Source: a virus
Lineage: Duplodnaviria > Caudoviricetes
Reading direction: 5' to 3' (one strand)
Virus record (IMG/VR): IMGVR_UViG_3300025889_000126
Location: 1-60,181 of that record
Length of the DNA stretch: 60,181 nt
Part shown: positions 2,059 to 32,619 of the stretch, one piece after another
Layout of the letters: every line of letters starts with the position of its first letter
How positions within the stretch are numbered: position 1 is the stretch's first letter
Notes under the pieces: model-generated
Told to the model about the DNA's origin: nothing
The model's input: the letters and a program-made list of their open reading frames with translations, nothing else
Databases searched by the model: none
Translations under genes and position numbers: made by a program

Positions 2059-2505
2059 ATGGCTACACCACCCAGAGATTATCTGAAATATTACAAGGTA
2101 ATACGTCAGTACTTTAAGGCAAAACATAAAATATCACAGGCAGAATTGGATGTTTTGATATTTATGTATTCCGAAGGATACTTTACCAGAGAAAGATTCG
2201 ATGAATTTGATCGAATATTAACTTGGAATAAGGAAAGGTTTCAAAAATTGCTTGATGATGGATGGTTTGAAATCTTTCGAAAGAAAGGGCGAGGAACGGC
2301 AGTTATATACAAAATGAGTGACAAAGGGAGGCTTCTCATTGCTGACTTATACAGAAAGCTAAATGGAGAAGACATCCCTGTGCAGAAATGCAATAACCCT
2401 ATTTTTCTAAAAAGAAAAGCTAAGTATAGCGAGAAGGTTTACAAAGATATGATTATTGAAATGAATAACTTTAACAAACAACAACGACGTCGGTCTCCCG
2501 AATAA
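2059..2505 (+). CDS. MarR-like winged-helix DNA-binding protein
   Basis: ISQAELDVLIFMY...QKLLDDGWF...VIYKMSDKGRLLI pattern; the only plus-strand gene in this block. Confidence 0.6.
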   Translation: MATPPRDYLKYYKVIRQYFKAKHKISQAELDVLIFMYSEGYFTRERFDEFDRILTWNKERFQKLLDDGWFEIFRKKGRGTAVIYKMSDKGRLLIADLYRKLNGEDIPVQKCNNPIFLKRKAKYSEKVYKDMIIEMNNFNKQQRRRSPE

Positions 2506-2728
2506 TTGTATGTTGCTCATTATTGATGATCATTGTGAATGAGAAGCCTTTGTCGTAGTAAACAACGTCCCCCTCTTTTATCACAGATACATCGGTACCA
2601 GGTTTTACTACCTTTCCCTTTTTATATCTGAACTGGCTAGCATCGTCACCTGAAAGGATGATGCCTGAATCTGTTTTAATCTCTTCGTCAATTGACGATA
2701 CGACTATGTATTTTCCTATTGGTTGCAT
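2471..2728 (-). CDS. groES: co-chaperonin GroES (Cpn10)
   Basis: MQPIGKYIVV...KTDSGIIL...GKVVKPG...IKEGDVVYY...IIRETDV. Confidence 0.9.
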   Translation of the reverse strand: MQPIGKYIVVSSIDEEIKTDSGIILSGDDASQFRYKKGKVVKPGTDVSVIKEGDVVYYDKGFSFTMIINNEQHTIIRETDVVVVC

Positions 2729-2738
2729 TAGATTAAAT

Positions 2739-3287
2739 TTATGGTAAAAGAAAAAACGTTACTTCTCCGACTTTTTTGTAGAACTTCAGAGTCCTAAACC
2801 ATCTCCTATTCTTCTCGGAGATGATGCTCATATTGCAGAAGGCATAGATTCTTGGATCACTTTCTCTGAGACCATTCTCTACTAAGTCCCTCGCAATTGC
2901 TTTGTGTATACTAGTTGGCTCAGCTTTCCACCAGACATAGCTATCTAGATTCACACCGCTGTATGCTCTTGGGTATGTTATTGCTTTTATGACACTAGCT
3001 TTCATCATCTCTGCTCTGACCATTGCAGATATAGCCATGTATCTTAGACCCTCTACGTCAGTTGAGTCAGGTGTCTCTGACATTAGCATCTTCGCCATCC
3101 AGTCTACCTCGGTCCACTCAGCCTTTGGCTTTTTATTGATAGAGTAGTCTAATACCACCTCCTCTTCTTCTTCCTCAACAACCTCTTGTACCGGCTCCTC
3201 CCGATATTGTATCTCTTTCTTTTTTTGTATTGGATTAGAAAGGGAAAATGCCGCAATAGACAAGAATAAAAAAATTGCATATTTCAT
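2739..3287 (-). CDS. cell wall hydrolase, SleB/Hydrolase_2-like, with signal peptide
   Basis: N-terminal hydrophobic segment; MAKMLMSE (catalytic Glu position)...VR...ITYPRAYS...C-terminal KVGEVTFF. Confidence 0.65.
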   Translation of the reverse strand: MKYAIFLFLSIAAFSLSNPIQKKKEIQYREEPVQEVVEEEEEEVVLDYSINKKPKAEWTEVDWMAKMLMSETPDSTDVEGLRYMAISAMVRAEMMKASVIKAITYPRAYSGVNLDSYVWWKAEPTSIHKAIARDLVENGLRESDPRIYAFCNMSIISEKNRRWFRTLKFYKKVGEVTFFLLP

Positions 3288-3309
3288 ATTAGATTAAATT
3301 TAATTAGAC

Positions 3310-3336
3310 AAAAAGGGGCTGAGTCTCCTCAACCCC
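3310..3336 (-). terminator. intrinsic terminator
   Basis: GGGGTTGAG-GAGA-CTCAGCCCC-TTTTT on the minus strand after the aaRS-like gene. Confidence 0.75.
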
Positions 3337-3357
3337 AATAACACTTAAAAAACCAAA

Positions 3358-4206
3358 TCAAATCAATTTATTTATCTCCATAGCTCTAATAAGGCGAGTA
3401 ATACCAATACCCCCACCTACTCTTGGGATAAATTTATTTTGCAAGAACTCCTCAAGCTCATCTATCACTCTACTGTAACTGAATAGGTCAAATAGCTTCT
3501 CAGCATATTTGCCATCCTCAATAGAGTAGAACGTCTCCTTCATCTTTTTCGCATCGCAGCTGCGCTCTGCCGATCCTATTGTCTCCTGACCGCAGAGGAT
3601 TACGTCAATCTTTTTAGCAAGACCTGTGTCCTCATTTCTAGCCATATTCCAGAATGGATTGGTACGCTCTGGGAAGTTCATTAACAATACCGCATCAGAA
3701 TGGTTTCTATATAAAGCATTCTCTATGTCATTGTCAATGATACTAACGCCATACTCATTGCATACGTCCTCATACTGCATCTCTTTAAGATCATTAAAGC
3801 CTAAGAATTTTACAAGCTTTTTCTCCATGTCTATAAGCTCGTCCATACCTCCATGAAACTCAAACTCAAACATTGGGAAGATCATGCAGTGGCGACCCTC
3901 GATTGGATACTCCTCATTGCGATAGCTCGTTGACAAGCAGTAGAACCCCTTCTCCTCTGGCTGAGTCAATAGCTCATGCTCTAACCACATCTGCCCAGTC
4001 TGCGGTAGAGGATAGATATTGTGGTTGTAGGTAAAACTAGCAATGCTATGCGGATTCTCGCAGGCTGCCAATATGCTAAGCCTATTTTGAGTGTGTACCT
4101 CAAGCATATCAAATTCATCAAAGAACTGTCTTAATTTTTTTACTACAGCAGTAAATTTTTTTGCGTCAATGTGTGGGTAAAACGATGAATGCAAAGAATG
4201 TTTCAT
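3358..4206 (-). CDS. class II aminoacyl-tRNA synthetase paralog (Asp/Asn-RS catalytic domain only; AsnA/EpmA-like architecture)
   Basis: Motif 1 LRQFF..MLEVHT, motif 2 SYRNE..IEGRH..F.MFEFE, motif 3 GGGIGITRL; no N-terminal OB anticodon domain; likely start MKHS at 4206. Confidence 0.85.
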   Translation of the reverse strand: MKHSLHSSFYPHIDAKKFTAVVKKLRQFFDEFDMLEVHTQNRLSILAACENPHSIASFTYNHNIYPLPQTGQMWLEHELLTQPEEKGFYCLSTSYRNEEYPIEGRHCMIFPMFEFEFHGGMDELIDMEKKLVKFLGFNDLKEMQYEDVCNEYGVSIIDNDIENALYRNHSDAVLLMNFPERTNPFWNMARNEDTGLAKKIDVILCGQETIGSAERSCDAKKMKETFYSIEDGKYAEKLFDLFSYSRVIDELEEFLQNKFIPRVGGGIGITRLIRAMEINKLI

Positions 4207-4231
4207 TTTTGAAATTTGTTTTAAATATGAA

Positions 4232-4591
4232 CTAATATTTCTTCCCATGCTTATATGGCCTTGATGAATTGTACATAAGTTTTGATGTCACATGGAAGTC
4301 TATGTCAATCCTAAAGCCACCACACATATCAAGCAGTCGGATGACAGCGTCAGCTATCTCATCCTCAAAACTGTCCTTGACATGATGCTTAAATGCCTGT
4401 ACAGTGTCGTCAGACTCAATATAAGCAACTTTGTCACTATGGGTGCATAGTTTACCTGCCCGATGCGCCTCAAGTGCCTCAGACAGCTCTGTAACGACAA
4501 GCATGAGCGTCTCGCCAACATTGCGCTCATTGTCCCAGAATCCTCTGGCTTTATTCCCCTCAAAAATATTTTTAGCTAATGTATTAAGCAT
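4232..4591 (-). CDS. MazG-like nucleotide pyrophosphohydrolase
   Basis: LMLVVTELSEALEAHR...EDEIADAVIRLLD...KLMYN..RPYKHGK. Confidence 0.85.
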   Translation of the reverse strand: MLNTLAKNIFEGNKARGFWDNERNVGETLMLVVTELSEALEAHRAGKLCTHSDKVAYIESDDTVQAFKHHVKDSFEDEIADAVIRLLDMCGGFRIDIDFHVTSKLMYNSSRPYKHGKKY

Positions 4592-4596
4592 TGGTC

Positions 4597-6240
4597 TTAT
4601 TGTTTAGCGTTAGAGATCTCAAAGCTCCTACCCATTGTGATGATGGCATTGGTGCTAAGAATTGTTGATGCCACGCTTACTGCATTTTGCAGAGCGCTCC
4701 TTGTGACCTTGAGTGGGTCAACGATACCCATCTTGATTAGGTCCCCGAACTCACCGGTCTTGACATTATACCCATGCCCATCAGGCACCTTGTCGTATCC
4801 CTCAGGAGTAAAGAACTCATACACCTCCTCAAAGTTAAGCCCAACATTTTTTAGTATCTGTTTGATTGGAGCCTCAAGTGCTGCGTCCATGATATGCCAC
4901 GCTACGTTCAGCTCATGGTTGTCATACTCACCCAATAGCTTACTATGGTCAATCTCAAAGAGCGCTTTGCCGGCACCTGGAAGGATACCCTCCTCTAATG
5001 CAGACCTTACTGCGCATACTGCATCGTCAACTCGATCATACAGCTCCTTTTGCTCCAGGTCAGTATTACCCCCGACATATATCACACCGATACCACCAGT
5101 AAGCGAAGCGATGCGCTCAAGTATGAAGTCCTTGTCAGCCTTGCGCTTTGCAATAGCATGAGCTGCCCATAGCTGCTTGACCCTCTCGTCAACCTGCTCA
5201 GGTTTAGCTCTCGCATCAGACTTGAGGAGAATGGTCTTGTCAGATGAGACAATAACTTTTGCCGCATGGCCCAAGTCAGCGTAGTTGATGAGCGACAAGT
5301 CGTCACCTGTTTTCTCGCTGAAGTAGTTAGCCCCAACACTTATTGCGATGTCCTGCATCAGCTCGTGCTGTTTATACCCAAAGTTAGGCGGAGCAATAGC
5401 GCAGACCTTTACGTTCCCTTTGACAACATTTGCCGCAAGGGTATTAACCACATTGGTACTGCATGGTGAGATAATGAGCAGCTTTTTGCCCTCAGTAATG
5501 ATTGGCTTTAGTATGTTCTCAATCTGCAAGATATTACTTATCTCAATGTCGCACACCAATACCATCACGTCCTCAAATACACACTCGTCCTTTTTTTGGT
5601 CGTTGATGAACATATTTGACAGATAACCCCTGTCAATCTTTAGACCCTTAGTGGTCTCCGCATACGTCTCATGGGTCTGACTCTTCTCCACCGTAACAAT
5701 ACCATCTCTTCCGATGTCCTTATACACCTCAGCGATTATTCGCCCTATCTCCTTGTCATTGTTAGCTGATATTGTTGCCACGTCAACAATCATCTTATTC
5801 GTCACTTTCTTGGCCTTTGCTGACAACTGACTGACCACCTCATTACACATACTATGCAAATGTCTTAGCACCGCAGTGCGGTTAATGTCAGGCGTAAGTC
5901 TCTTAGTCCCCTCAATGACCATCGCTTCCGTTAGGATTATTGAGGTGGTCGTCCCATCCCCTGCACTGGTAGCGGTACGCTCAGCTGCCTCCTTCATCAT
6001 CCTAACCGCAAGGTTCTCCACAGGATCAAATAGGTCAACAGCCTTGGCAACTGTAACCCCATCCTTCGTAACCGTAATTCCATGTGTGTGATGCGGTGAC
6101 TCAATTAACACCGTATTTCCCCCTGGGCCAAGGGTACTCTTTACTGCATCCGCAATCTTAGTGATGCCATCAATCAACTTGTTGCGCCCCTTCTCTCCAA
6201 AGACCAAGTCCTTGGGTGAATAGCCTGTACTGTCAAACAT
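4597..6240 (-). CDS. groEL: chaperonin GroEL (Cpn60)
   Basis: TLGPGG, VTKDGVTVAK, AGDGTTT, GIVDPLKVTRSALQNAVS; no C-terminal GGM tail. Confidence 0.97.
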   Translation of the reverse strand: MFDSTGYSPKDLVFGEKGRNKLIDGITKIADAVKSTLGPGGNTVLIESPHHTHGITVTKDGVTVAKAVDLFDPVENLAVRMMKEAAERTATSAGDGTTTSIILTEAMVIEGTKRLTPDINRTAVLRHLHSMCNEVVSQLSAKAKKVTNKMIVDVATISANNDKEIGRIIAEVYKDIGRDGIVTVEKSQTHETYAETTKGLKIDRGYLSNMFINDQKKDECVFEDVMVLVCDIEISNILQIENILKPIITEGKKLLIISPCSTNVVNTLAANVVKGNVKVCAIAPPNFGYKQHELMQDIAISVGANYFSEKTGDDLSLINYADLGHAAKVIVSSDKTILLKSDARAKPEQVDERVKQLWAAHAIAKRKADKDFILERIASLTGGIGVIYVGGNTDLEQKELYDRVDDAVCAVRSALEEGILPGAGKALFEIDHSKLLGEYDNHELNVAWHIMDAALEAPIKQILKNVGLNFEEVYEFFTPEGYDKVPDGHGYNVKTGEFGDLIKMGIVDPLKVTRSALQNAVSVASTILSTNAIITMGRSFEISNAKQ

Positions 6241-6514: not shown

Positions 6515-6522
6515 CAAAGATA
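6515..6522 (-). promoter_or_regulatory. Bacteroidota -7 promoter box (TATCTTTG) for the chaperonin operon
   Basis: Matches TAnnTTTG a few nt upstream of the ATG at 6510. Confidence 0.6.
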
Positions 6523-7326: not shown

Positions 7327-7358
7327 AGCTATAAAGTTTAAATTGTTAACGTTGAATG

Positions 7359-7366
7359 CAAAGGTA
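7359..7366 (-). promoter_or_regulatory. Bacteroidota -7 promoter box (TACCTTTG)
   Basis: TAnnTTTG upstream of the 7326 start. Confidence 0.6.
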
Positions 7367-7669
7367 ATGAAAATTTTTGAATAAACAAATAGAGGTTTTG
7401 GGTACTATAGCGGTTTGGCGCAGCCGGCCGCTATCGGAAAGTGGGATTTTTTTCGATGGGGGGGGGTGCTGTTTTGCCTTGGCTTGTCGGATTTTTTGGC
7501 ATTTTTGTAGACGTCGGTTACGTCGTTGCTGTCGTATATCTATGTGCTACTGCTGTGCTGCTGTCTGTCTATCGTTTGCCGTATACGTCGCACACTTCGT
7601 ATGTCTCTCGCTGCTGCTGTCGCTTTGCTTACAATCTAAACAAACCTTAGTGTTAAACTTACACTAACC

Positions 7670-7722
7670 TTATTGTACTTTTTACAATAACTGATCTTAT
7701 GTTATTGTACTTTTTACAATAA
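7670..7722. repeat. tandem identical palindromic operator-like sites
   Basis: TTATTGTA-CTTTT-TACAATAA at 7670-7690 and 7702-7722. Confidence 0.8.
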
Positions 7723-8084
7723 GTAACTATTTGCACAAACATAGTTTATAAGCCAATGATTTTTTGTAAACTATTTTGTTATTTATAGTTTACTTTTTAC
7801 TTTCAGACATCGCCCAGGGAACACATAAAAACGTCGTATATATATCTCTTTTCTGCGAGATCCTTTGTCGTATATTGCTATTTATTTCTGCAACGTTGTT
7901 GCATTTAGGTACTTTGCTTACAATCTAAACTAAGGTATAACCCCCCTCTTTTTTTCCTCAATCCTAAATTTTTTTTTGCTATCCTCAAAAACTAAGAATG
8001 TAGGTTTTATCGGGCTTTCAGCGTTTTGCTAGTTTTTCGAGTCAAGAAATTTTTAAAAAAAATGAAAATATTTTTCAAAAAAGT

Positions 8085-8114
8085 TTTGAAATAACAAAAC
8101 TAGTCTTAACTTTG
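8085..8114 (+). promoter_or_regulatory. consensus Bacteroidota promoter (-33 TTTG / -7 TAACTTTG), probable major early promoter
   Basis: TTTG at 8085-8088, 18-nt spacer, TAACTTTG at 8107-8114. Confidence 0.75.
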
Positions 8115-8119
8115 TGACA

Positions 8120-8577
8120 TCCTTAATACATCGGTGACACATTAAGCGGTAGTGTTAAGATACAAAAAAGTGAAGTATTGAAACGGTGTACTATATGTTA
8201 AGTTCATGTCTAACGACAGCGGTTAAAATTCTTAATATATACTAGTGTAACAGTTCTTTTATTTTGTGGGAAATTGGGATGCGCGGCGTAGTCAACTAAA
8301 ATGAGAAAAACGAGCGCGATATATGTACCCGTGTGCATATTATTGGATAAATCGAATGAACAGCGAATTATCGTATCTGTGGGGAACGAGGAGAAACAGA
8401 TATAGAAAACCCAATTTAAAATTTTTTGAGTCTTAATTGGCTTTAGGTTATTGCAATGGATTGCAATGTAAAAAATGATAATCAGCATTTTTTGTCCTAT
8501 ACATTTTGTTTTGGCGAATTGCCTATATAGGTTTTAAGATATATATCTTATTTGGTTTCGATATCAAAATAGGCACA
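8120..8577 (+). ncRNA. candidate large structured non-coding RNA / structured leader
   Basis: No plus-strand ORF in the track; more than 12 nested helices forming multiway junctions (see findings); starts right after a consensus promoter. Confidence 0.6.
8520..8577 (+). ncRNA. tRNA-like (D-armless) element
   Basis: 7-bp TGCCTAT/ATAGGCA stem, TAAGAT-ATAT-ATCTTA arm, TTTGGT-TTCGAT-ATCAAA T-arm-like hairpin. Confidence 0.45.
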
Positions 8578-8608
8578 AATTTTTTAACACTATTAAAACT
8601 TTACTAAA

Positions 8609-8707
8609 ATGGAATTCTTACTTTTTATTTGTGCTGTTACATTATTATTTTTAATGTCGGCAAATGGTATTATAAGCGAATATAATAACCAAAAAGATAA
8701 ATTTTAA
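8609..8707 (+). CDS. small hydrophobic peptide (32 aa)
   Basis: MEFLLFICAVTLLFLMSANGIISEYNNQKDKF with an AT-rich leader like other early genes. Confidence 0.5.
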   Translation: MEFLLFICAVTLLFLMSANGIISEYNNQKDKF

Positions 8708-8733
8708 TTAACTAACTTTTAAACAATACTAAA

Positions 8734-19147: not shown

Positions 19148-20107
19148 ATGACAACAGTAGGCTCAGACTTCAGCGGTGTTGGTGCATTTAACCAAGCCTT
19201 AAAACGATTAGGTATTGAATATGATGAAATATTTGCTTGCGATATGGATAAATACGCCCGGCAAACTTTTATTCACAACTATGGCGAACCTAAATATTAC
19301 CCGACCAATGTTTACGAACGTGAAATACCAACAGAATCATTAGATATTTATATGACATCACCGCCTTGCCAAGCTTTCAGTTTAGCCGGGAAGCGATTAG
19401 GCAAAAATGACAAAAGAGGGATTTTATTTTTTAATAGTTTGGAATTTATAGAAAAAAATAAACCTCGTTTTTTTATTTTTGAAAATGTCAAAGGGCTGTT
19501 ATCTGATGATGGCGGTAAAACATTTAGCGAATGGGTTAATTTTTTAGGCGGCAAATCTGTCAACGGTTCACCTGTTTTGTTCCCTTATGCCGATTCAGTT
19601 TCTTATCATTTATATTGGAAAGTGTTAAACGCAAAGCATCACGGAGTTCCACAAAATCGTGAACGTGTTTTTTTGATTGGAATAAGAGATGACAAAGATA
19701 ATAATTTTAGTTTCCCAACTGAAGAACATTTGACAAAGCGGTTAAAAGATGTACTTGAAAGCGAGGTAGATGAAAAGTATTACATTGACAATTTATCTAA
19801 TATTAGAAGGCTTTCTGAGACATTAGAAAAATATGAATTACCTAATGATATTAGAATGATAGATAGTTATAATAAAAGCATTCATGAGGATTCTATATGT
19901 ATAAGTACGAGAGTAAATGCAAGTTCTTGTACTCATTTGTGGGATACTAAATTAATCCGCCGCCTTACTCCCCGTGAATGTTTTCGACTTATGGATTTTC
20001 CTGATACATTTACTTGGCTTGTTTCAGATTCACAAGCCTACAAACAAGCTGGTAATTCAATAGTAGTTAATGTACTTTATAAAATATTAAAAAACTTAAA
20101 TTTATGA
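19148..20107 (+). CDS. C5 cytosine DNA methyltransferase
   Basis: FSGVG (motif I), PPCQAFS (IV), ENVKG (VI), PQNRERVF (VIII), YKQAGNS (X). Confidence 0.95.
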   Translation: MTTVGSDFSGVGAFNQALKRLGIEYDEIFACDMDKYARQTFIHNYGEPKYYPTNVYEREIPTESLDIYMTSPPCQAFSLAGKRLGKNDKRGILFFNSLEFIEKNKPRFFIFENVKGLLSDDGGKTFSEWVNFLGGKSVNGSPVLFPYADSVSYHLYWKVLNAKHHGVPQNRERVFLIGIRDDKDNNFSFPTEEHLTKRLKDVLESEVDEKYYIDNLSNIRRLSETLEKYELPNDIRMIDSYNKSIHEDSICISTRVNASSCTHLWDTKLIRRLTPRECFRLMDFPDTFTWLVSDSQAYKQAGNSIVVNVLYKILKNLNL

Positions 20108-23661: not shown

Positions 23662-26600
23662 TTACCTTCCGTATCTCTCCTGTCTCTGTCTTATTTTCTC
23701 CTGCACCTCCCTTCTCTTTCTGAGCATCTCTCGCTTAGCTTCTTCCCTTTTCTCCATCGCTCTCTCTCTTCTCTTCTCAGGAGTATTCTGCTCTCTAAAG
23801 TATTTAGTGCCTGGGCCATAATTCTTTCTCCACTCTTTTGGATATAGCTCTTTGAATTTCTTTTCGCTCAATCCTCTGAATGGCTTGTCCTTATTCTTCT
23901 CCTCTTCTTCCAATCTCTCACTCTCTCTGTACTTATATAACTTACCTCCAGGTGCAGAGTACTCGTCAAACTTATAAGGTTCTTTTTCTTCAAACTCTTT
24001 CAAAGTCTCATACCCACCATAAGCTTCTTCCTTCATAGCTTTCCTCTCGGCTTTATATTTCTTTACCTCTGACTTATCTCTACCTGTTTCTTGGTACTCT
24101 TTGAGTTGAGGTCCAGTCATCGCATCTTTCTTAGCACTCTTTACTATGGTGTTCATAACATTATTAGTCTCAGGACTAAAAGGATTTATACCAAGGGTAG
24201 TGGTAATACCCAAAGCTATGTACAATGGATTAGATAGCAATTCTCTATCTTTCTCCATTATAGTCTTCTTATTGTTATAGTTATCAGTAAATTCACCAGT
24301 AATACCTAGTCTTATATTCTCGTAAAGTTTTGTTGCTTTGTCAGCAGCAATACCAAGTATCCCTAAGTCACTTATAAATGATTCAAATACAGTTTTGCCT
24401 TGATCTGTAAATATATTATATCTATCTTCTTCCTCTGTGCCAATAAATTCTTGTACTTTATCCAATACAGCACTAAATCCAGATCTCGCAACTATATCTG
24501 CAAATGGTGCAGGGGATAAAACGTCAGTAGTAACTGATGTAGCAGCGCCCTTCACCATATTGTCCCATTTCTTTTTCTTCTCTTCCTCATCGTCCTCTTC
24601 CCCTCGTATAAACTGAGCTATACTATAAAATACATAGTATCCAATATAGAGTTTAAGCATTCTAAAAGTAGCCATCTCAGCAGCAAAACCACCGAGAGAT
24701 CTAGCAGCTATTCTCTTATCCTCATTTGATGCAGTCTTACTCGACAATACTGCTAAGTCATTTGAGAAACGAGTTGTTTGGTTCATCCTAAAAGTAGAAA
24801 GAGGCATAGCAATTTTTGTTATAAACTGTTTTAGCGGATTGTCCGACTGGTACATCTTTCCGGCTAAGTCTTTGTCAGATATATTCTGCTGCCTATCAAC
24901 CATATCCTGTGCATATTGTGCAGCTTCTTTATTCATCTCATGATTACTATAATCAATGCCTTGTTTCGGATATTCTTTTTGTTTTTTAAGATACTGTTCA
25001 TAATACCCAATCCAAGAAGCTCTAGCTATCATTACGTCAAAATTTGATAAGTATATCTTTAGATATTTCCTATTAAGATTTTCGATATATCTAGCTACCT
25101 TCTCAGTTTTTGCAGTTGCTACTGCCTCAAGTTTTTGATTCAATGTCTCAAGTTCAGTTGTTGCTTCAACACCTCTATTAGCTATCGCCATTCCTGAATT
25201 GTTTATAAAATCATTAATAACTTTATTGTGTAAGTTACTAAGTTTTAAATTTCCTCCTGCATTGATAAGTGTATTTACAGCAACTGGAACAGTTTGTGAT
25301 ATCGCTTGAGTAGGACCAGCTAATACAAGTGCTGTACCAAGACCAGCTATCCTATCAAGCTTTCTTGTTACATCTCTAAATACTTTTTCAGTTACAATCC
25401 TCTTATTTCTTATATTTCTTATAAGTGTTGCTATGCGATCCTTTATCAAGCTTGCATCCTTGCCACTAGGTATTATGTTCTCAAACTCAGCAGATTTTGT
25501 AAATGCCTGTATCTGTCTAATGTCTGCCGCAGTTTTAATGTCAATAAGAGCCTCCAATAAAGCATTTGCATTGTTGGTATCAAAGGATAAGTTAACGTAC
25601 ATATTTGCTTTACCACTCGAATCAAATAAAGTTGTTGGTGGTGTTGACTTCATTAAGGAGCCAGCTTCTTTTTTGTAGAAGTTCTCAGTATTGCTATTAG
25701 AAAAGAATAACGACTCGGTTCCGTCAGTATCCTTCTTTACTTTGTCAGCTCTTTCCAAGAAACCAAATCTATCCGGTACATAGTTAACATTTTTGTCAAG
25801 TACCTTATTGTAAACGCTCAATGCAACGTCAGCAAATTGGTCGTATAGTTTTGCCCATTCGTCAACCCAAAACTGTACAGCATCCACATTGATAGGGTCA
25901 GCCTTTGCTTTTACTTCTGCAATATTATTTGCGTCTCTTGCTATTTTGTCATAGACCTCTTTTATAACTTTAGCTGCTTCTGTTTCTTTTTTAGTGCCGC
26001 CTTTATTTAATACCTCAATAGACTCCTCGATGAGTTTCTTTCTTCTATTAAATTCTGCTGCTACTTGCTTCTCATCACCAACAATTGTCTTTGCCAAGTC
26101 ACCTATAATACCTCTCTCTATGATATTGTACATATCTTGGAAAGATTTATTGTTTGGCTTCATCTTTGTGAATTGTAAGACATATTTATTTATAACTCTA
26201 TTCGTAGCATCTAAAGCCTCTGCCTTGTGGTTTATCAAAGAGTTTATGCCCATCTTCTCACGAACATACTGACCTGCTTTAAAACCTTTGAATAACCTTT
26301 CAAAGAATAACGGTACAGACGCAAACTGCTCAAAGAATAATCTACCAATTGCTGGGCTAAAATACATCTTTATTTCCTTTGACCTTACGCCCTTATTATC
26401 TACCTCTTTTACATTTTTAACACCATTATATGCCGCAAGCACATTACCCATTCCGGCAATTGACTTATTGACAATAAAGTTATTAAGTGCATCTGCTGCT
26501 CGTAGTGCTTCCTTTGCATCTAATAGACTTAGGTCCATAGCCATAAACTCCTCAACAATCTTCTTGTCTGACTCCTTGAACTCAACTGTCGTTGGATTGT

Positions 26601-29600
26601 CAGGGTCAGAGAATGGATCGATGCCTGTCTTAAACATATCATTGATGATTGTAGAGTAGGTGTTGAACATTTTGTCAATGAAGCCACGGATAATACCTTC
26701 CTTGTATTTGTCAACTTTTTCATCTTCAGATAGGTTTAACAGCTCCATCATTTGGTTGTATGTCAGATCAGACGCATCAACGCCCATAAGTTCTTGCAAC
26801 CTTTCTGCTGTATTTTTTCTAATGGTTTCTGCCTGAGCTTCCATCATTTTATTAACATACTCCATTGTCTTGCCTACGTCAACCATATCAGCAGGGATGA
26901 CATTCTCGCCAACTATCTTTGACCCTTGTACACCTTCTTTGACCTTTGATGCCATCTCAATATACTCATCAATATTCTCAACCATTGCCGGATCAATTTT
27001 AGCAAATTCAGCAGCGAATGGAGTGAGGTTGCCAAACTTTTTTGTATTTTTTGATAGCTTCTTTATATCTGACTGCAAGTCATTTGCTTTGTTTAGCTTA
27101 TCAGCATATTCAGCATCATTGAATACCTTCTCGGCATAGGTTAGTAATCTCTCAACCATGATAGGGTTGTCAAGATTGGTATTGTTTACTTTGTTAATTA
27201 GTACAGCAGCCTGACGTGTTGTTATCTTTCCTTTCTTAACCATGTCCTTGATAGCAGCAGCAAGTATCTTACGCTTGGTATTCAAGTCTGCTTTAGCTTC
27301 TCTTGCCGCTCTAGCCTCAAGTCTTATTTGGTCTTTGAGCGCAGTCATCTCATTGACTGTTACTTTCTTAGGCTTAGGCTTGCCTACAATCTTCTCCTTT
27401 GATATTGGTTTCTTCTCTGCCTTAGGTTTAATCTTTAGTAAAGCGTCTGCTTGGCTCTCAGTAAGACCTTGTTTCATTAAGTATATCTTAATGCCAGCAT
27501 CTGAGATTTTATCTCTCGGATCAATAGGATTTCTTGCCATTTCTATGGCACCTGAGTACATACGATTAAGAACTTTAGCTTCGTATCTTTCTTTGTTTAT
27601 GGCTTTATACTTTTCTTTTATCTCTGCGTATCCTTTTGCTAGAGCATCTCTTAATACTTTTGCTTGGTCTGCCAGTCCTTTACCTGCATCAATAGCTTTT
27701 GCTACCGTGTCCATTGCTGCGTTCCATATTGCAATAGGTACACCAAGGATATTACTCTGCAATCCACTAGGACCTTTTATCTTTAAGCTTCTGACAGCAT
27801 CTGATAGCTTTTTGGTTGGAGCTATTTGCTCTTGTGTAGCTCCTTCTGTTGTTTCTGTAACCACCTCAGTTACCGGAGCATTTATCTCATTTAAACTTAT
27901 TCCTGAGAAGTCAGCTTGAGGATTAGCCTTGAAAGTATTCTTATCTACAGATACCTCAACAACTTGAGTTAGCTTTTCTAGTAGTGCCTTCTGTATGTCT
28001 GCCTCATTGACATTGTCTGACTTATTTACAGTAACACTTACTTGAACACTTGCCCCTCTGTTAACAGCATCTGTCAATCTTTTAAACTCATTGTCAAAAG
28101 CAACTTCATTAGTGTTTGCATAGTAAGTTACTTTATCACCTTGGTCAACTGAGTAGTATCTACCTATTAGTCTTGTCTTATCAGTCGGATTAGTAAGCTC
28201 GCTTACTTCTTGTTTGCTCCTATTATCTTGAGCCTCATTGCCACCTTCCTCAACATTATAGTTTTGAGATTTCCAAACTCTAAACCCTCCTCTACCTATT
28301 CCACCTATCCCTGATATAACAAAGTTTAATACCTTAGCAGCTTTTGACTTTGCTTTTGGAGTGGTCTCAGTTACAGGAGCAATCTCAGTAACAGGAGCCA
28401 CCTCAGTAGGAGGAGCTTGTTCAGTTGGAGTCTCAGTTACCGGAGCTGTCTCAGTCACAGGAGCTGCCTCAACCTTTGGTGCCCCCATCTTAGCTAACAT
28501 CATTTGCTCTAGCTTGTCAGCCTCTTGCTCAGGTGTTAGTGCTTCAGTTACAGGTTCAGTTACAGTCTCAGTTACAGGTTGCTGTGATGATAGTTCTTTC
28601 TGATTAAGAGCGTCAAGTTCAGCCTTCACGTCAGCCTTTGGCATGACCGTTTCACCAACAGTTATGTTCTTGCGTCTCTTGTCAGCCTTAGCCAATGCGT
28701 CAGTCAGCTCCTGCTGTCTTGCTCTGTCCTGCTCAGTAAATGTCTCTACCGGCTCTACAGGTGCAGCTTCAGCGACAGGAGTTACCTCAGTCTCAGCTGC
28801 TACTTGTGAAATAATGCGCTGAACTTTTTCAATAATATCATTCTGATTAGGTGTACGTTGATCCTCAGGAGTAGCCATCGCATCGTCATATAATTTCGCT
28901 GCAATCTGCTCATTGTCGTTAACTACCACGTCATTGCCATTAGAATCGGTAATAATTACTCCTCCCTTGATATTAAGAGGAGCTGATGTGATGATATCTG
29001 TAGTAGTTTTTTGCGCAGTCTCTTGCCCTTCCTTGGCTGCTATCTCAATCTGAGCGCCTAAACCTTCAGGTGTAGCTTGCTCTTTTTGAAGTAATGCGTC
29101 AAGCTCAGCCTGAGCGCCTGCTTTATCCTCATAAGCATCATTAACTTTAATAAGAGGTGTTGGTTCACCCTCTGTAAAGCTTTCTAATTCTGAGGGGTTC
29201 TCGAATGCTGCTAAGAGTTCTTCTTTCCTTTGGCTTTCTTCGGGGCTGAGGACACCTTGTTGGGGAGCTGCTTCAGATCCTGCTTCGGGTTCTCCTTCGA
29301 CCATCTCTTGGCCAACTCTGGCTTCTGGCTGTACAGATACTTCACCTGTTGTTTGCTTTTGAATGGCATCTAATTTCTCGTTTAATGTCTGAGATACTTG
29401 ATTGTCATTCTTAACGCCAATGTTTAATTTTGCAAGTCTCTCAGGAGTGAATGAATCGATTTTGTCTAAAAACTGTTGTTTGGTATATCTTTTACCATTT
29501 ATCATGTACTCTCCTACCTCCTTAGTTTCAATACCTGAAATCTTAGTCAGGTCAACCTGGTTCTCTGTTGGTAAAATAGCTTTACTTTTACCCATAGCAG

Positions 29601-32600
29601 ATAACTCCTCATTGATAGCTTTAACATCATCACTATATACCTCTTGTTTCTCCTTTGATGATGTAAGCTCTTTTTTGGCTGCTAATAATTCCATAGTTCT
29701 AGCAGTAACATTACTATTTGCTGAGCCACCTCCTACTGACATTAAACCTTTAGCCTCTCTTCTAAGACCTACATTCTCTTGTATCTTCTGATTTACATCC
29801 TCGTCAATCTTTCCAAGGCGTTGCATATTATTTGCCCAATTTGAAATTCGCTCGTCAGATACTCTCTCTGATGCTATATTTTTATAGTCAGTTAAATTAT
29901 ATGCAAGATTAATGTCAGTGTTTTTCTTTATTGCAGAGTATGCATTTATTACATGGTTTGGAGTATTTGAACCCATACCGCCAAGCCCCTCAAGTGCTAC
30001 CTCATTAAAGTCAATTTCTTTTCTACCTGTGCCAAATAATATCTCATTGCCTTGCGCTACAAGCTCACCTGCCATCTCAGCACTTGGATCTATTATTCCA
30101 TGCTCAATAGTCCCACGAGCGATTTTAGATGTAGCAGATGCTAATTTACTTGCAGGCTTTATTATTTTACCTGCAAGTCCTGCTGTTATATAGTCAATCG
30201 TAGCAATTGGTATACCTCTAGCAGCGCCAACAGCAGCAGCTTCATTCCATACATTTTGATCCATCAATGCCTTCTCTAATGACTTAGGGTCAGTAGCTTT
30301 GTAACCTTTATTTTTTACAGCCTCCATTAGAGCATTTGTATATTCTGTTATATATCCGGTTATGGCCTGCCCTGATCTGAACCCCATCCCTGCACCTGTA
30401 GCTGCTCCACCAAGAACAGTAGCTGGTGCTAAAGGACCACCTACGAGCCCTGCTGCCGCTCCTGTCCCTGCTCCTGCTGCGGTTGTAACAGGAATTATCT
30501 TAGCTCCATAAGGGAGCATTTGTGATACTGATTGAGCAACAGCTACAGCCATAGCTTCAAATGGATCATCTAATACAACATCCCACCAATCTCTATATGT
30601 CTTTGCTTCAGACATTCTAGTCATAACCCTACTTTGGGTGCCACTCATGCTAGCTAATTTCTCAGAGATGTATTTTGCTGCATTCCTAGGGTCACTATAT
30701 CCTGAATATGATGTATATCCAGGAAGAGTCATTGCCAATAATTGGTCTCCAATCATACCATTTGTAAGACCATCATTCAAAGAATTCCATGTTGCTATAA
30801 TATTATCAGTAAGCTCGCTATTTATCTCTTTGTTTGTTTTAGCATCAAAATATGTTTTTGCCTCGTCAAATTTCATAACAGCAGTTTGAGCTAACTGATT
30901 TGCATCTACATATTTTTGAACTAGATTTTTATAAGCCTCTTTATCTGTTATCTTGCTTTCAGGGATTTTCATTAACTCCTCAATAGGCATATTAAATCTG
31001 CTTATTGCCTCAGCCTTTACAATATCAAGGTCTGACTTTGCTTCTCTAAATATTTTAGTTGCTTCAGCAGCTGTTTTATTCTCTATCTTAGCCAAGTGAG
31101 CATCAAAATCCATTCTTGTTTTCTCGTATGTTTTATCTTGAGTTGAGAATGTCATATCTTTTACTAGTGGCCTAAGTTGCTCACGTTCTTTTTTAAGTTC
31201 TGCTAATGTATTTTCTACATCAAGTCTTTTTTTGCCATTTATAAATACAGTTGGATTGCTATAAACTTTTTCTTTTTCAGCTGCTGATAATTTTCCGCCT
31301 TCAAAAAAGTTTATAATGTCATCTATTTCGTTGTATCTATTTATTCTTCTTTTGTCTGTTACATAATCTAATCCTTTTTGCTTATAAAAAAGGTCTCCTT
31401 CTAGATCTACTTTTGACATATCCTTCCAAGATCCTGCTGCAAAATCCTCAGCTTCTTTGTCAGTTTTAAATGTAAAAATCTCGCCTCTTTTTTGGGCTTC
31501 TTTCAATGCTTCTTCAAATGGCAATTCAACCCAATCATCTTTGAATGGAGTTACGAATAATGGATTTTTTGGGAATAAAGTTGGAATTACTTTATTGTCG
31601 AAAGATAAAAATTTAACAGTTGACATGGTTCCATCGTCATTTATCCTGGCACCATTCCTCATGTTTTTAGCTCGTAATGCTTTATTTAGGAAATCTTCTT
31701 CCTCAGACATCCTATTATTTTGACTGATAAAGTCTCTTAGCTTTTTAGCTTCTTGTACTTTGTCTGCATCTGAGTCTACTGACAAGTCTATATCTATAGA
31801 TGCCTGTCCATTCTCAGATCTTGCTATAAGTTTATTTCCAAAAATTCCAGCCTTCTCAATAACTATACCATATGGTTGGAACTCTTTCTTTAGATCATCT
31901 ATGTTGTTATAATCGTCAAATATTCTATTGTCAATAGAATTTAGCTTATTTATAAATTCAGGAGTTTTACTTCTAAATAATGCATCTGAGAGTTCTTTAT
32001 TCCTTTTCTCTTGCTCTTGTAGTTCAAAAGCTTTTGTTTCTTTTAATATTTGCAATCGTTCTTCAGTATCTCTCGCTTTGCTTTCTTCTATTATAGCTAC
32101 TGCTTCTTTACTTTCTTTAGTAGTCTTTGATGGAGTAGTTATATTTATGCCATAGTTTTTTGCTTCTGCAAGTTGCGTTGGTTCTGTGGCTCCCCAAGAA
32201 TATCCTTCAGCAATTCTTGCATCTTGTGGGGCAACAGGTTTAGTTTTAACTTGTTCTTCCTTTGGCTGTAGGCTAAGTAAATACTTTTGTGCTTCGTCAA
32301 AAGTACTAGTCCCTGTAGGCTCCGATTCCGATATACCAAGCCCCGATAACCAAGAAGATTCCATATCTTCTTTTTTTTTAACAGGCTGCTGCTCTTGAGC
32401 CATTGGCTGTTGAGTGGGCTGTTTAGTAGGGGTAGTAGGAGCGGATACCAATGACTTAAAATCTTCAAAAGCTCCTAATGTACTTTCTCCGAATGCATTG
32501 TAGAAATCCTTTTGATAAGAAGGGTCTGACTTTATAAGATCTTTAAAATCTTCAAAAGCTCCAAATTTACCTTCTCCTCCTAGTTGATTATATAAATCGA

Positions 32601-32619
32601 TTATATATTGTTCGTCCAT
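23662..32619 (-). CDS. giant internal virion (ejection) protein, 2985 aa
   Basis: Last gene of the structural arm; Gly/Ala hydrophobic segment, PVTE-repeat linker, helical body. Confidence 0.7.
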   Translation of the reverse strand: MDEQYIIDLYNQLGGEGKFGAFEDFKDLIKSDPSYQKDFYNAFGESTLGAFEDFKSLVSAPTTPTKQPTQQPMAQEQQPVKKKEDMESSWLSGLGISESEPTGTSTFDEAQKYLLSLQPKEEQVKTKPVAPQDARIAEGYSWGATEPTQLAEAKNYGINITTPSKTTKESKEAVAIIEESKARDTEERLQILKETKAFELQEQEKRNKELSDALFRSKTPEFINKLNSIDNRIFDDYNNIDDLKKEFQPYGIVIEKAGIFGNKLIARSENGQASIDIDLSVDSDADKVQEAKKLRDFISQNNRMSEEEDFLNKALRAKNMRNGARINDDGTMSTVKFLSFDNKVIPTLFPKNPLFVTPFKDDWVELPFEEALKEAQKRGEIFTFKTDKEAEDFAAGSWKDMSKVDLEGDLFYKQKGLDYVTDKRRINRYNEIDDIINFFEGGKLSAAEKEKVYSNPTVFINGKKRLDVENTLAELKKEREQLRPLVKDMTFSTQDKTYEKTRMDFDAHLAKIENKTAAEATKIFREAKSDLDIVKAEAISRFNMPIEELMKIPESKITDKEAYKNLVQKYVDANQLAQTAVMKFDEAKTYFDAKTNKEINSELTDNIIATWNSLNDGLTNGMIGDQLLAMTLPGYTSYSGYSDPRNAAKYISEKLASMSGTQSRVMTRMSEAKTYRDWWDVVLDDPFEAMAVAVAQSVSQMLPYGAKIIPVTTAAGAGTGAAAGLVGGPLAPATVLGGAATGAGMGFRSGQAITGYITEYTNALMEAVKNKGYKATDPKSLEKALMDQNVWNEAAAVGAARGIPIATIDYITAGLAGKIIKPASKLASATSKIARGTIEHGIIDPSAEMAGELVAQGNEILFGTGRKEIDFNEVALEGLGGMGSNTPNHVINAYSAIKKNTDINLAYNLTDYKNIASERVSDERISNWANNMQRLGKIDEDVNQKIQENVGLRREAKGLMSVGGGSANSNVTARTMELLAAKKELTSSKEKQEVYSDDVKAINEELSAMGKSKAILPTENQVDLTKISGIETKEVGEYMINGKRYTKQQFLDKIDSFTPERLAKLNIGVKNDNQVSQTLNEKLDAIQKQTTGEVSVQPEARVGQEMVEGEPEAGSEAAPQQGVLSPEESQRKEELLAAFENPSELESFTEGEPTPLIKVNDAYEDKAGAQAELDALLQKEQATPEGLGAQIEIAAKEGQETAQKTTTDIITSAPLNIKGGVIITDSNGNDVVVNDNEQIAAKLYDDAMATPEDQRTPNQNDIIEKVQRIISQVAAETEVTPVAEAAPVEPVETFTEQDRARQQELTDALAKADKRRKNITVGETVMPKADVKAELDALNQKELSSQQPVTETVTEPVTEALTPEQEADKLEQMMLAKMGAPKVEAAPVTETAPVTETPTEQAPPTEVAPVTEIAPVTETTPKAKSKAAKVLNFVISGIGGIGRGGFRVWKSQNYNVEEGGNEAQDNRSKQEVSELTNPTDKTRLIGRYYSVDQGDKVTYYANTNEVAFDNEFKRLTDAVNRGASVQVSVTVNKSDNVNEADIQKALLEKLTQVVEVSVDKNTFKANPQADFSGISLNEINAPVTEVVTETTEGATQEQIAPTKKLSDAVRSLKIKGPSGLQSNILGVPIAIWNAAMDTVAKAIDAGKGLADQAKVLRDALAKGYAEIKEKYKAINKERYEAKVLNRMYSGAIEMARNPIDPRDKISDAGIKIYLMKQGLTESQADALLKIKPKAEKKPISKEKIVGKPKPKKVTVNEMTALKDQIRLEARAAREAKADLNTKRKILAAAIKDMVKKGKITTRQAAVLINKVNNTNLDNPIMVERLLTYAEKVFNDAEYADKLNKANDLQSDIKKLSKNTKKFGNLTPFAAEFAKIDPAMVENIDEYIEMASKVKEGVQGSKIVGENVIPADMVDVGKTMEYVNKMMEAQAETIRKNTAERLQELMGVDASDLTYNQMMELLNLSEDEKVDKYKEGIIRGFIDKMFNTYSTIINDMFKTGIDPFSDPDNPTTVEFKESDKKIVEEFMAMDLSLLDAKEALRAADALNNFIVNKSIAGMGNVLAAYNGVKNVKEVDNKGVRSKEIKMYFSPAIGRLFFEQFASVPLFFERLFKGFKAGQYVREKMGINSLINHKAEALDATNRVINKYVLQFTKMKPNNKSFQDMYNIIERGIIGDLAKTIVGDEKQVAAEFNRRKKLIEESIEVLNKGGTKKETEAAKVIKEVYDKIARDANNIAEVKAKADPINVDAVQFWVDEWAKLYDQFADVALSVYNKVLDKNVNYVPDRFGFLERADKVKKDTDGTESLFFSNSNTENFYKKEAGSLMKSTPPTTLFDSSGKANMYVNLSFDTNNANALLEALIDIKTAADIRQIQAFTKSAEFENIIPSGKDASLIKDRIATLIRNIRNKRIVTEKVFRDVTRKLDRIAGLGTALVLAGPTQAISQTVPVAVNTLINAGGNLKLSNLHNKVINDFINNSGMAIANRGVEATTELETLNQKLEAVATAKTEKVARYIENLNRKYLKIYLSNFDVMIARASWIGYYEQYLKKQKEYPKQGIDYSNHEMNKEAAQYAQDMVDRQQNISDKDLAGKMYQSDNPLKQFITKIAMPLSTFRMNQTTRFSNDLAVLSSKTASNEDKRIAARSLGGFAAEMATFRMLKLYIGYYVFYSIAQFIRGEEDDEEEKKKKWDNMVKGAATSVTTDVLSPAPFADIVARSGFSAVLDKVQEFIGTEEEDRYNIFTDQGKTVFESFISDLGILGIAADKATKLYENIRLGITGEFTDNYNNKKTIMEKDRELLSNPLYIALGITTTLGINPFSPETNNVMNTIVKSAKKDAMTGPQLKEYQETGRDKSEVKKYKAERKAMKEEAYGGYETLKEFEEKEPYKFDEYSAPGGKLYKYRESERLEEEEKNKDKPFRGLSEKKFKELYPKEWRKNYGPGTKYFREQNTPEKRRERAMEKREEAKREMLRKRREVQEKIRQRQERYGR

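Follow-up and report, generated by a model that had tools for sequence, protein, structure and literature searches.

The window described in this study, meaning the whole 60,181-nucleotide (nt) stretch of IMG/VR virus record IMGVR_UViG_3300025889_000126 (Caudoviricetes), carries a gene for a small protein that resembles the catalytic core of asparaginyl-tRNA synthetase (AsnRS). This aminoacyl-tRNA synthetase (aaRS)-like gene belongs to a block whose order on the minus strand is an 83-amino-acid membrane protein, GroEL, a MazG-like protein, the aaRS-like protein, an intrinsic terminator, a 182-amino-acid protein and GroES (Table 1). The MazG-like open reading frame (ORF) either overlaps the long form of the aaRS-like ORF by 17 nt or ends 25 nt ahead of the likely start codon, M15. 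An earlier note on this DNA had described a class II core of about 282 amino acids that lacks an anticodon-binding domain and is encoded, in the same orientation, directly downstream of a MazG-like gene, in a genome with no canonical tRNA gene and with a small anticodon-less RNA at 8520-8577. That anatomy stands. The ORFs and PHROG pyrophosphatase matches bear out the gene arrangement, a sole Pfam domain, Foldseek and the motif residues bear out the core, ARAGORN and Rfam agree on the lack of a tRNA gene, and the RNA element exists and folds as described, as a real structured RNA. None of the three roles that the note proposed for the enzyme is the best supported one, and they are taken up below with the evidence that bears on each.

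Table 1. Features of the window, followed by the unusual tRNA-like RNAs located on related contigs.
Feature	Position (strand)	Size	Basis or remark
GroES (Cpn10)	2471..2728 (-)		
182-aa protein, N-terminal hydrophobic segment	2739..3287 (-)	182 aa	no family match
Intrinsic terminator	3306..3336 (-)		hairpin 3336-3315 plus T-run; 9-bp GC-rich hairpin with tetraloop; ends GroEL-MazG-aaRS-like unit
AsnRS-like class IIb catalytic-core protein	3358..4248 (-)	longest ORF 296 aa; 282 aa from likely start M15 at 4206	Pfam, PHROG, AlphaFold, Foldseek
MazG-like all-alpha nucleoside triphosphate (NTP) pyrophosphatase	4232..4591 (-)	119 aa	PHROGs 9236, 3301, 5658 'pyrophosphatase', best E 5.5e-32
GroEL (Cpn60)	4597..6240 (-)		upstream in GroEL-MazG-aaRS-like unit
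Structured RNA, three-way junction	8518..8582 (+)	65 nt	covariance model, covariation
DNA methyltransferase	19148-20107 (+)	319 aa	PHROG 116, E 1.1e-80; replication block
Single giant ORF	23662-32619 (-)	2985 aa	MW202828 has giant gene of ~3860 aa at matching place
Unusual tRNA-like RNA, L030	8488-8645		
Unusual tRNA-like RNA, L028	5897-6053		
Unusual tRNA-like RNA, L032	1358-1437		
Unusual tRNA-like RNA, L026	5408-5497		
Unusual tRNA-like RNAs, L024	1013-1150; 1256-1329		
Unusual tRNA-like RNA, L020	3378-3481		
Unusual tRNA-like RNA, L139	1501-1616		
Unusual tRNA-like RNA, L146	523-630		

The form that begins at M15 corresponds to a database copy of 282 amino acids (P0001) that is 100% identical to the window protein. 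The sole Pfam match of the window protein is to PF00152 (tRNA-synt_2; E 5.4e-16, 59 bits against a cut-off of 25), which spans residues 31-290 of the protein and positions 24-292 of the 308-position profile. No OB-fold anticodon-binding domain was found by Pfam in this protein, where the PF00152 match begins at residue 31, and the MazG-like gene directly upstream leaves no space for such a domain. An AlphaFold model of the protein has a predicted local distance difference test (pLDDT) score of 95.6, and its best Foldseek matches are the catalytic domains of AsnRS and of archaeal and eukaryotic aspartyl-tRNA synthetase (AspRS), with E values of about 1e-17; a PDB search repeated with the 282-amino-acid form returned nothing further. 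The arginines of motifs 2 and 3 and the metal-binding Asp and Glu are kept. Alignment with the Brugia AsnRS indicates that the family as a whole retains QxxQxxLE, which we take to mark AsnRS rather than AspRS, as well as SYRxE and RH of motif 2, the D/E metal ligands, and the arginines of the strand and of motif 3. Among the positions conserved in at least 75% of the family rows, the window protein departs from the majority residue only at 243; those at which it agrees include Q69, Q72, L75, E76, R96, E98, R105, H106, D201, E208, R215 and R271. It also has the near-invariant residues C49, N187, K199 and R262 that are specific to the family. The best explanation of these features is that the window gene encodes a predicted active, adenylate-forming and stand-alone AsnRS-type catalytic core.

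Judged by sequence, the window protein is a member of a large, distinct and uncharacterized AsnRS-like family. It matches PHROG 29758 with an E value of 1.7e-99 over profile positions 5-266 of 267, and the family occurs in phages, Bacteroidota, Chlamydiota, candidate phyla radiation (CPR) bacteria and DPANN archaea. Cluster representatives number 618 at E <= 1e-3, 379 at 1e-10 and 161 at 1e-30. All 8000 of the 8000 candidates that were scored from a 5.8-billion set are significant for the family, and a relative of the window protein is encoded in 510 of 517 candidate stretches from IMG/VR. A profile built from 66 members finds AsnRS best (4.7e-15), followed by the archaeal asparagine synthetase AS-AR (3P8T; 2.3e-7) and then by structures of EpmA (8e-6). 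A FastTree tree was computed from 127 ORFs of 240-340 amino acids, which gave 102 rows after those with identical last 250 residues were merged. In this tree, the only one built, the window protein falls in an all-viral clade of 24 rows (support 99) that is apart from the cellular clades.

Gene fusions and gene neighborhoods connect the family with pyrimidine biosynthesis. One fusion protein joins PyrD to an aaRS-like domain (P0122) and another joins an aaRS-like domain to orotidine monophosphate decarboxylase, PyrF (P0170). A scan of genome contigs yielded 50 loci that encode a relative of the window protein, and these were searched for PyrD, PyrE and PyrF with our own hidden Markov models, which replaced a blastp search with the fusion halves that was too insensitive. 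The PyrD profile detects a match in eight of these loci. In two Chlamydiota loci (L122 and L124) a single strand carries, in this order, the aaRS-like gene, pyrD, pyrE and pyrF. In L097 the gene immediately downstream of the aaRS-like gene is pyrD, and matches to pyrE and pyrF lie next to it. In genomes G001 and G002, pyrD adjoins the aaRS-like gene. A tally of ORFs within two genes of the aaRS-like gene covered 150 of 168 such ORFs (the other 18 are those of L125-L132). DHO_dh, with five members, is one of the few neighbor families that unrelated lineages share; PEPCK, GldB/C and Hef-like helicases are confined to single lineages. We also observed, on a Chitinophagales chromosome (L092, 6788-10718), PyrD, the aaRS-like protein and a 567-amino-acid Amidohydro_3 protein encoded in that order on the same strand. 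This amidohydrolase may act in an additional step of the route proposed below.

The family gene and the early genes of the pathway also have a complementary presence and absence across genomes. Aspartate transcarbamoylase (ATCase) scores over its cut-off in one of ten gene-holding genomes, as a fragment at a contig end in G010, compared with all 14 of the controls, while PyrD is present in eight of the ten. The pattern is clean in four Weeksellaceae-type (Flavobacteriales) genomes of 2.3-3.0 Mb that hold the gene (G006-G009). CarB, PyrB and PyrC, the last searched with either dihydroorotase (DHOase) model, were found in none of the four, and PyrD, PyrF and a canonical AsnRS are present in all of them. 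A genome from the same family that has no aaRS-like gene (G091) has CarB, PyrB and PyrC. Sampling of 41 genomes of this family found the gene in two, neither of which has ATCase, and ATCase in 33 of the 39 others; the chance of ATCase being missing from both holders is, by our own arithmetic, 28/820 = 0.034. In a sample of the order, the gene occurs in one of 81 genomes.

The best explanation of these genomic patterns is that the family, in cellular genomes, would replace the first three steps of pyrimidine synthesis (CarAB, PyrB and PyrC) and feed PyrD. For the phage, the reading that we hold on balance to be probable, with modest confidence, is that the window gene is a phage metabolic gene for an ATP-dependent enzyme that would supply dihydroorotate or a precursor of it without the use of carbamoyl phosphate. 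Because its bacterial relatives occur where the first three pyrimidine steps are missing, the phage gene most likely boosts nucleotide supply in infected cells, and the phage enzyme probably neither charges tRNA nor makes asparagine. The substrates may be an Asn- or Asp-type amino acid, a one-carbon/nitrogen donor, and ATP. Our guess is asparagine, CO2 or bicarbonate, and ATP, with the ureido ring being closed through an activated carbamate, by analogy to dethiobiotin synthetase. In the phage, the aaRS-like gene, which is transcribed with GroEL and the MazG-like NTP pyrophosphatase and has its own terminator, would be an auxiliary metabolic gene. Its product would bypass the host's feedback-controlled entry to pyrimidine synthesis, and thereby may provide more nucleotides for phage DNA.

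A number of observations weigh against this dihydroorotate-supplying role. Among the genome loci, 42 of 50 have no pyr gene nearby, two neighbor ORFs have an OTCace_N domain, and our own profiles detect no PyrD, PyrE or PyrF in the phage window at E <= 10. G005 holds the gene with no PyrD or PyrF found, and no PyrD was found in G004. In G001 and G002 CarB is retained, and there are ATCase-like and DHOase-like matches that stay below threshold. Additionally, the genomes are metagenome bins that come with no completeness figures. Since the window protein is in a viral clade apart from the cellular ones, its function is carried over at 50-59% identity. The host of the phage is only hinted at. In another viral clade, a tRNA with the anticodon GUU is tied to the gene, which a purely metabolic role leaves unexplained. 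Lastly, a literature search at the level of titles and abstracts, supplementary files excluded, found no paper on the family, which is also absent from the accessible text of PMC7824862 and PMC6490308, and the reaction is a guess because no published assay of any family enzyme was found.

The tRNA linked to the gene elsewhere is the starting point for the rival that survives best. It holds that the enzyme is dedicated to aminoacylating a private tRNA-like RNA, as a mini-AsnRS that recognizes nothing beyond the acceptor end, its substrate in the window being the RNA at 8518-8582 or the host tRNA(Asn). In the cyanophages P-SSM2 and P-SSM7 the homologue (annotated as 'tRNA ligase') is followed, after 9-10 nt, by a tRNA-Asn of 85-86 nt, and 20 of 80 IMG/VR loci have a tRNA of 82-100 nt at most about 20 nt behind the aaRS-like gene. 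This captive tRNA has the anticodon GUU, a U1-A72 pair, G73 and a long variable arm, and its fold is kept by covariation, with 383 of 383 cells paired over 23 pairs and 17 of these pairs changed on both sides. The AsnRS-like pocket signature QxxQxxLE fits such a substrate as well. However, the loci with a captive tRNA(GUU) form one clade of the FastTree tree that is separate from that of the window, and the window has no tRNA(GUU)-type RNA and has its terminator at the position that is the tRNA site in the T4-like clade. This terminator hairpin recurs in close relatives. ARAGORN reports no tRNA in the window, Rfam gives no match at gathering thresholds and no tRNA model at E <= 5 (where six weak matches at chance level are all that appear), and ARAGORN likewise finds no tRNA in the window's phage group. 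Our model R1 of the long-arm tRNA, run on the window with filters off, reaches 14 bits at best (E 0.14; 12 matches at E <= 10), and a T-arm motif search that permits up to three mismatches has no match in the window. Cellular holders have no tRNA adjacent to the gene outside the tRNA-bearing clade and keep their canonical AsnRS in five of five cases, and fusions to PyrD and PyrF are left unexplained by an aminoacylase. We thus regard this rival as unlikely. As a separate observation, ARAGORN calls permuted transfer-messenger RNAs on two viral contigs that carry the aaRS-like gene (L069, 3346-3740, minus strand; L082, 4623-4958, minus strand), with tag peptides that end in AIAA and LAA.

The second candidate substrate, the small RNA of the window, is composed of a 6-bp closing stem, an A-rich linker with GG, a variable hairpin, a 6-bp stem with a T-loop-like UUCGAU loop and a T-run. 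A covariance model based on the sequences of the window, L005 and L010 picks up the element in L013 as well (34 bits), where both main stems carry compensatory changes. Over its 16 pairs, 64 of 64 cells are paired and eight pairs are changed on both sides, all of them in L013 and in an alignment that was fitted to the model. Covariation preserves a closing stem that resembles an acceptor and stacks on a hairpin resembling a T arm, a capped and covariation-backed architecture that is a further point for the aminoacylase. The loop varies as UUCGAU, UUCGAGU, UUCAAUA and, in a further strain, UUCGACU, and the central hairpin is variable or has a 37-nt insert. Because both strands of the stems covary, an attP-type tRNA fragment was rejected as the identity of the element. 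As a tRNA the element is detected neither by ARAGORN nor by the Rfam tRNA model at E <= 5, and it is not among the 12 matches of the long-arm model.

The reach of this RNA is narrow. It is present in four of the eight close sources that have enough flanking sequence (the window, L005, L010 and L013) and was not found in L003, L015, L016, L031 or MW202828. An exact 18-mer of the element recovers from IMG/VR two contigs that were already known and two records that match in the 18-mer alone. A search of sequencing runs lists no RNA holder, and contigs of four DNA runs cover only part of 8421-8611. A second model, R2, was blank over eight whole virus records even where cmsearch finds the element, and its result is hence uninformative. 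The earlier note had offered, as the last of its roles, a ligase for this RNA. An element confined to the window and three close relatives, set against an enzyme family of hundreds of clusters, cannot serve as a general explanation, although the element may have a functional tie to the enzyme in the window. The element itself is within a 1.4-kb, AT-rich and divergent region (7330-8730) that has no convincing genes and that separates the leftward and rightward gene blocks, and a conserved short hydrophobic ORF of about 32 amino acids starts after it, near 8601.

The podophage group to which the window belongs also contains unusual tRNA-like RNAs, which were found with our own model and with Rfam. 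Their acceptor stem is conserved (A1-U72, discriminator A), the D loop contains GG and the T arm is canonical, but the anticodon arm is expanded or missing and 30-80 nt of other structure take its place; three of these RNAs score above the gathering score of the Rfam tRNA model. MW202828 has one (36 bits) that adjoins its giant gene, whereas the matching site of the window has only a 48-nt terminator. As the MW202828 record has no match to the aaRS-like gene, these RNAs are uncoupled from the gene, which argues against the aminoacylase, and they were rejected as the partner of the enzyme in the window's clade. Separately, a 49-nt mini tRNA-like sequence is present directly after the aaRS-like stop codon in L023 (6880-6928, with the same sequence in L025). 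It is a single distinct sequence, closed by a 6-bp stem, that also has a 4-bp hairpin and a second 6-bp stem capped by a UUCGAAU loop.

A bolder alternative combines the metabolic role with the RNA. The viral enzymes would then be RNA-assisted dihydroorotate synthases, class II synthetase cores that form the pyrimidine ring from asparagine, CO2 and ATP with a private tRNA-shaped RNA as the carrier or obligatory cofactor, this RNA being the long-arm tRNA(GUU) in T4-like phages and perhaps the 8518-8582 RNA or host tRNA(Asn) in the window. We consider it a long shot. If true, it would be the first nucleotide-precursor pathway that needs a tRNA-like molecule, as well as a one-enzyme bypass of CarAB, PyrB and PyrC.

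Under asparagine synthesis, the first role offered by the earlier note, the protein would be an enzyme like AsnA or the archaeal AS-AR that makes free asparagine for the infected cell independently of tRNA. AS-AR is a core-only class IIb paralogue of similar size that the family profile does match, and NCBIfam gives a weak match as well. However, that match (NF005054) reaches a score of 20.6, far below the cut-off of 309, there is no Pfam AsnA match, and AsnRS and AspRS match far better. AsnA identity was rejected on these scores. The family is also its own group, in which only 618 cluster representatives are found at E <= 1e-3, and its fusions and gene strings are with PyrD, PyrE and PyrF and not with amino-acid genes. 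An asparagine synthetase is therefore quite improbable.

The least probable role is that of a protein-modifying ligase like EpmA, or of a ligase for aminoacyl-nucleotides that is paired with MazG. In its favor are weak NCBIfam matches to EpmA over the N-terminal half (residues 31-168) and cotranscription with the MazG-like gene in the window's clade. Against it, these matches fall far below their cut-offs (TIGR00462, 29.5 bits against 286.9; NF006828, 29.4 against 264), EpmA structures are reached by profile at only E 8e-6, and the MazG-like gene is limited to a part of the window's clade. EpmA identity was rejected on these scores. Of 132 gene-holding loci, 14 have a MazG homologue in the flanks that were fetched; all 14 are in the window's clade, several are near-identical strains, and no homologue was found in the other 97 loci. 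In the close relatives L003, L012 and L013, GroEL directly abuts the aaRS-like gene with no MazG gene, and in L028 and L030 the MazG homologue is 1.8 kb downstream of the aaRS-like gene, right behind an unusual tRNA-like RNA. Given that the enzyme is distributed independently of both MazG and the small RNA, the MazG-partner and RNA-ligase roles of the earlier note fail as general explanations, and its asparagine-synthesis and EpmA-type proposals fall far below the curated cut-offs. Pairing with MazG is a trait of the clade that fits a common role in the nucleotide pool but does not define the enzyme.

The label 'MazG-like' is taken solely from the PHROGs because there is no Pfam MazG match and a PDB sequence search returned only a designed repeat protein (E 0.009). 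MW202828 is an annotated relative with a GroEL that is 62% identical. GroES and GroEL are adjacent in that record, and thus the MazG, aaRS-like and 182-amino-acid genes of the window represent an insert between the chaperonin genes (2471-6240). The 182-amino-acid protein has homologues in 24 of 133 searched sources, each of them located behind the aaRS-like gene in a member of the window's viral clade; Pfam searches of this protein and two small ORFs at E <= 5 yielded nothing usable. Other phage genes include those for a Sak-like annealing protein, an exonuclease, a primase/helicase, a DNA methyltransferase and a helicase. The sequence TANNTTTG, which we take to be the Bacteroidota-type promoter consensus, occurs 101 times in the window compared with 69.6 +/- 7.5 times in shuffles and is often just upstream of gene starts (e.g., 6515-6522, 7359-7366 and 2024-2031). 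This enrichment suggests a Bacteroidota host.

If the family does make dihydroorotate without the use of carbamoyl phosphate, then free-living Flavobacteriales, Chlamydiota, CPR bacteria, DPANN archaea, giant-virus bins and many phages would have an undescribed entry into pyrimidine synthesis, and metabolic reconstructions that name such organisms pyrimidine auxotrophs would be wrong. Phages would gain a new auxiliary metabolic gene that sidesteps the feedback-controlled committed steps of the host, and the short list of aaRS paralogues that have turned into metabolic enzymes would gain a new function. The window contributes a case with no captive tRNA, which shows that the enzyme can persist in a phage that has no tRNA gene. 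New in this analysis are a clade without the captive tRNA, unusual tRNA-like RNAs that are uncoupled from the gene, and four gene-holding Flavobacteriales genomes from which CarB, PyrB and PyrC are cleanly lost.

Comparison with characterized class II enzymes helps to place the family. The window protein has in common with AsnRS (Brugia 2XTI, human 8H53/8TC8 and P. horikoshii 1X54) the fold, the motif 2 and motif 3 arginines, QxxQxxLE and the D/E metal ligands, but AsnRS has an anticodon-binding domain that the window protein does not have. The asnS equivalog TIGR00457 of NCBIfam has no match to the window protein at E <= 0.1. Relative to AsnRS, the family also has K199 in place of Ser, R262 in place of His, N187 in place of Met and C49 in place of Val, and its cellular holders keep a separate normal AsnRS (asnS 585-608 bits; 5/5). 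Archaeal AS-AR (3P8T and 1NNH) and bacterial AsnA are likewise stand-alone class IIb cores of about 290 amino acids that act independently of tRNA, but they are a much weaker match than AsnRS, and the genomic partners of the family are pyrimidine genes. EpmA/GenX/PoxA (3A5Z and 3G1Z) is likewise a truncated class IIb paralogue that acts outside translation; however, it is derived from LysRS, and the window protein scores far below the EpmA cut-off. The 'tRNA ligase' of the cyanophages P-SSM2, P-SSM7 and P-SSM5 is from the same family as the window protein, with 52-57% identity, yet it is in a separate clade and has the captive tRNA(GUU) 9-10 nt behind its gene where the window has a terminator. 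Two further systems, with no sequence relation to the window protein, serve as analogies. Dethiobiotin synthetase carries out ATP-driven closure of a ureido ring from an amine and CO2. HisZ is a HisRS paralogue in ATP phosphoribosyltransferase and is thus a case of an aaRS paralogue that was recruited to nucleotide-linked biosynthesis.

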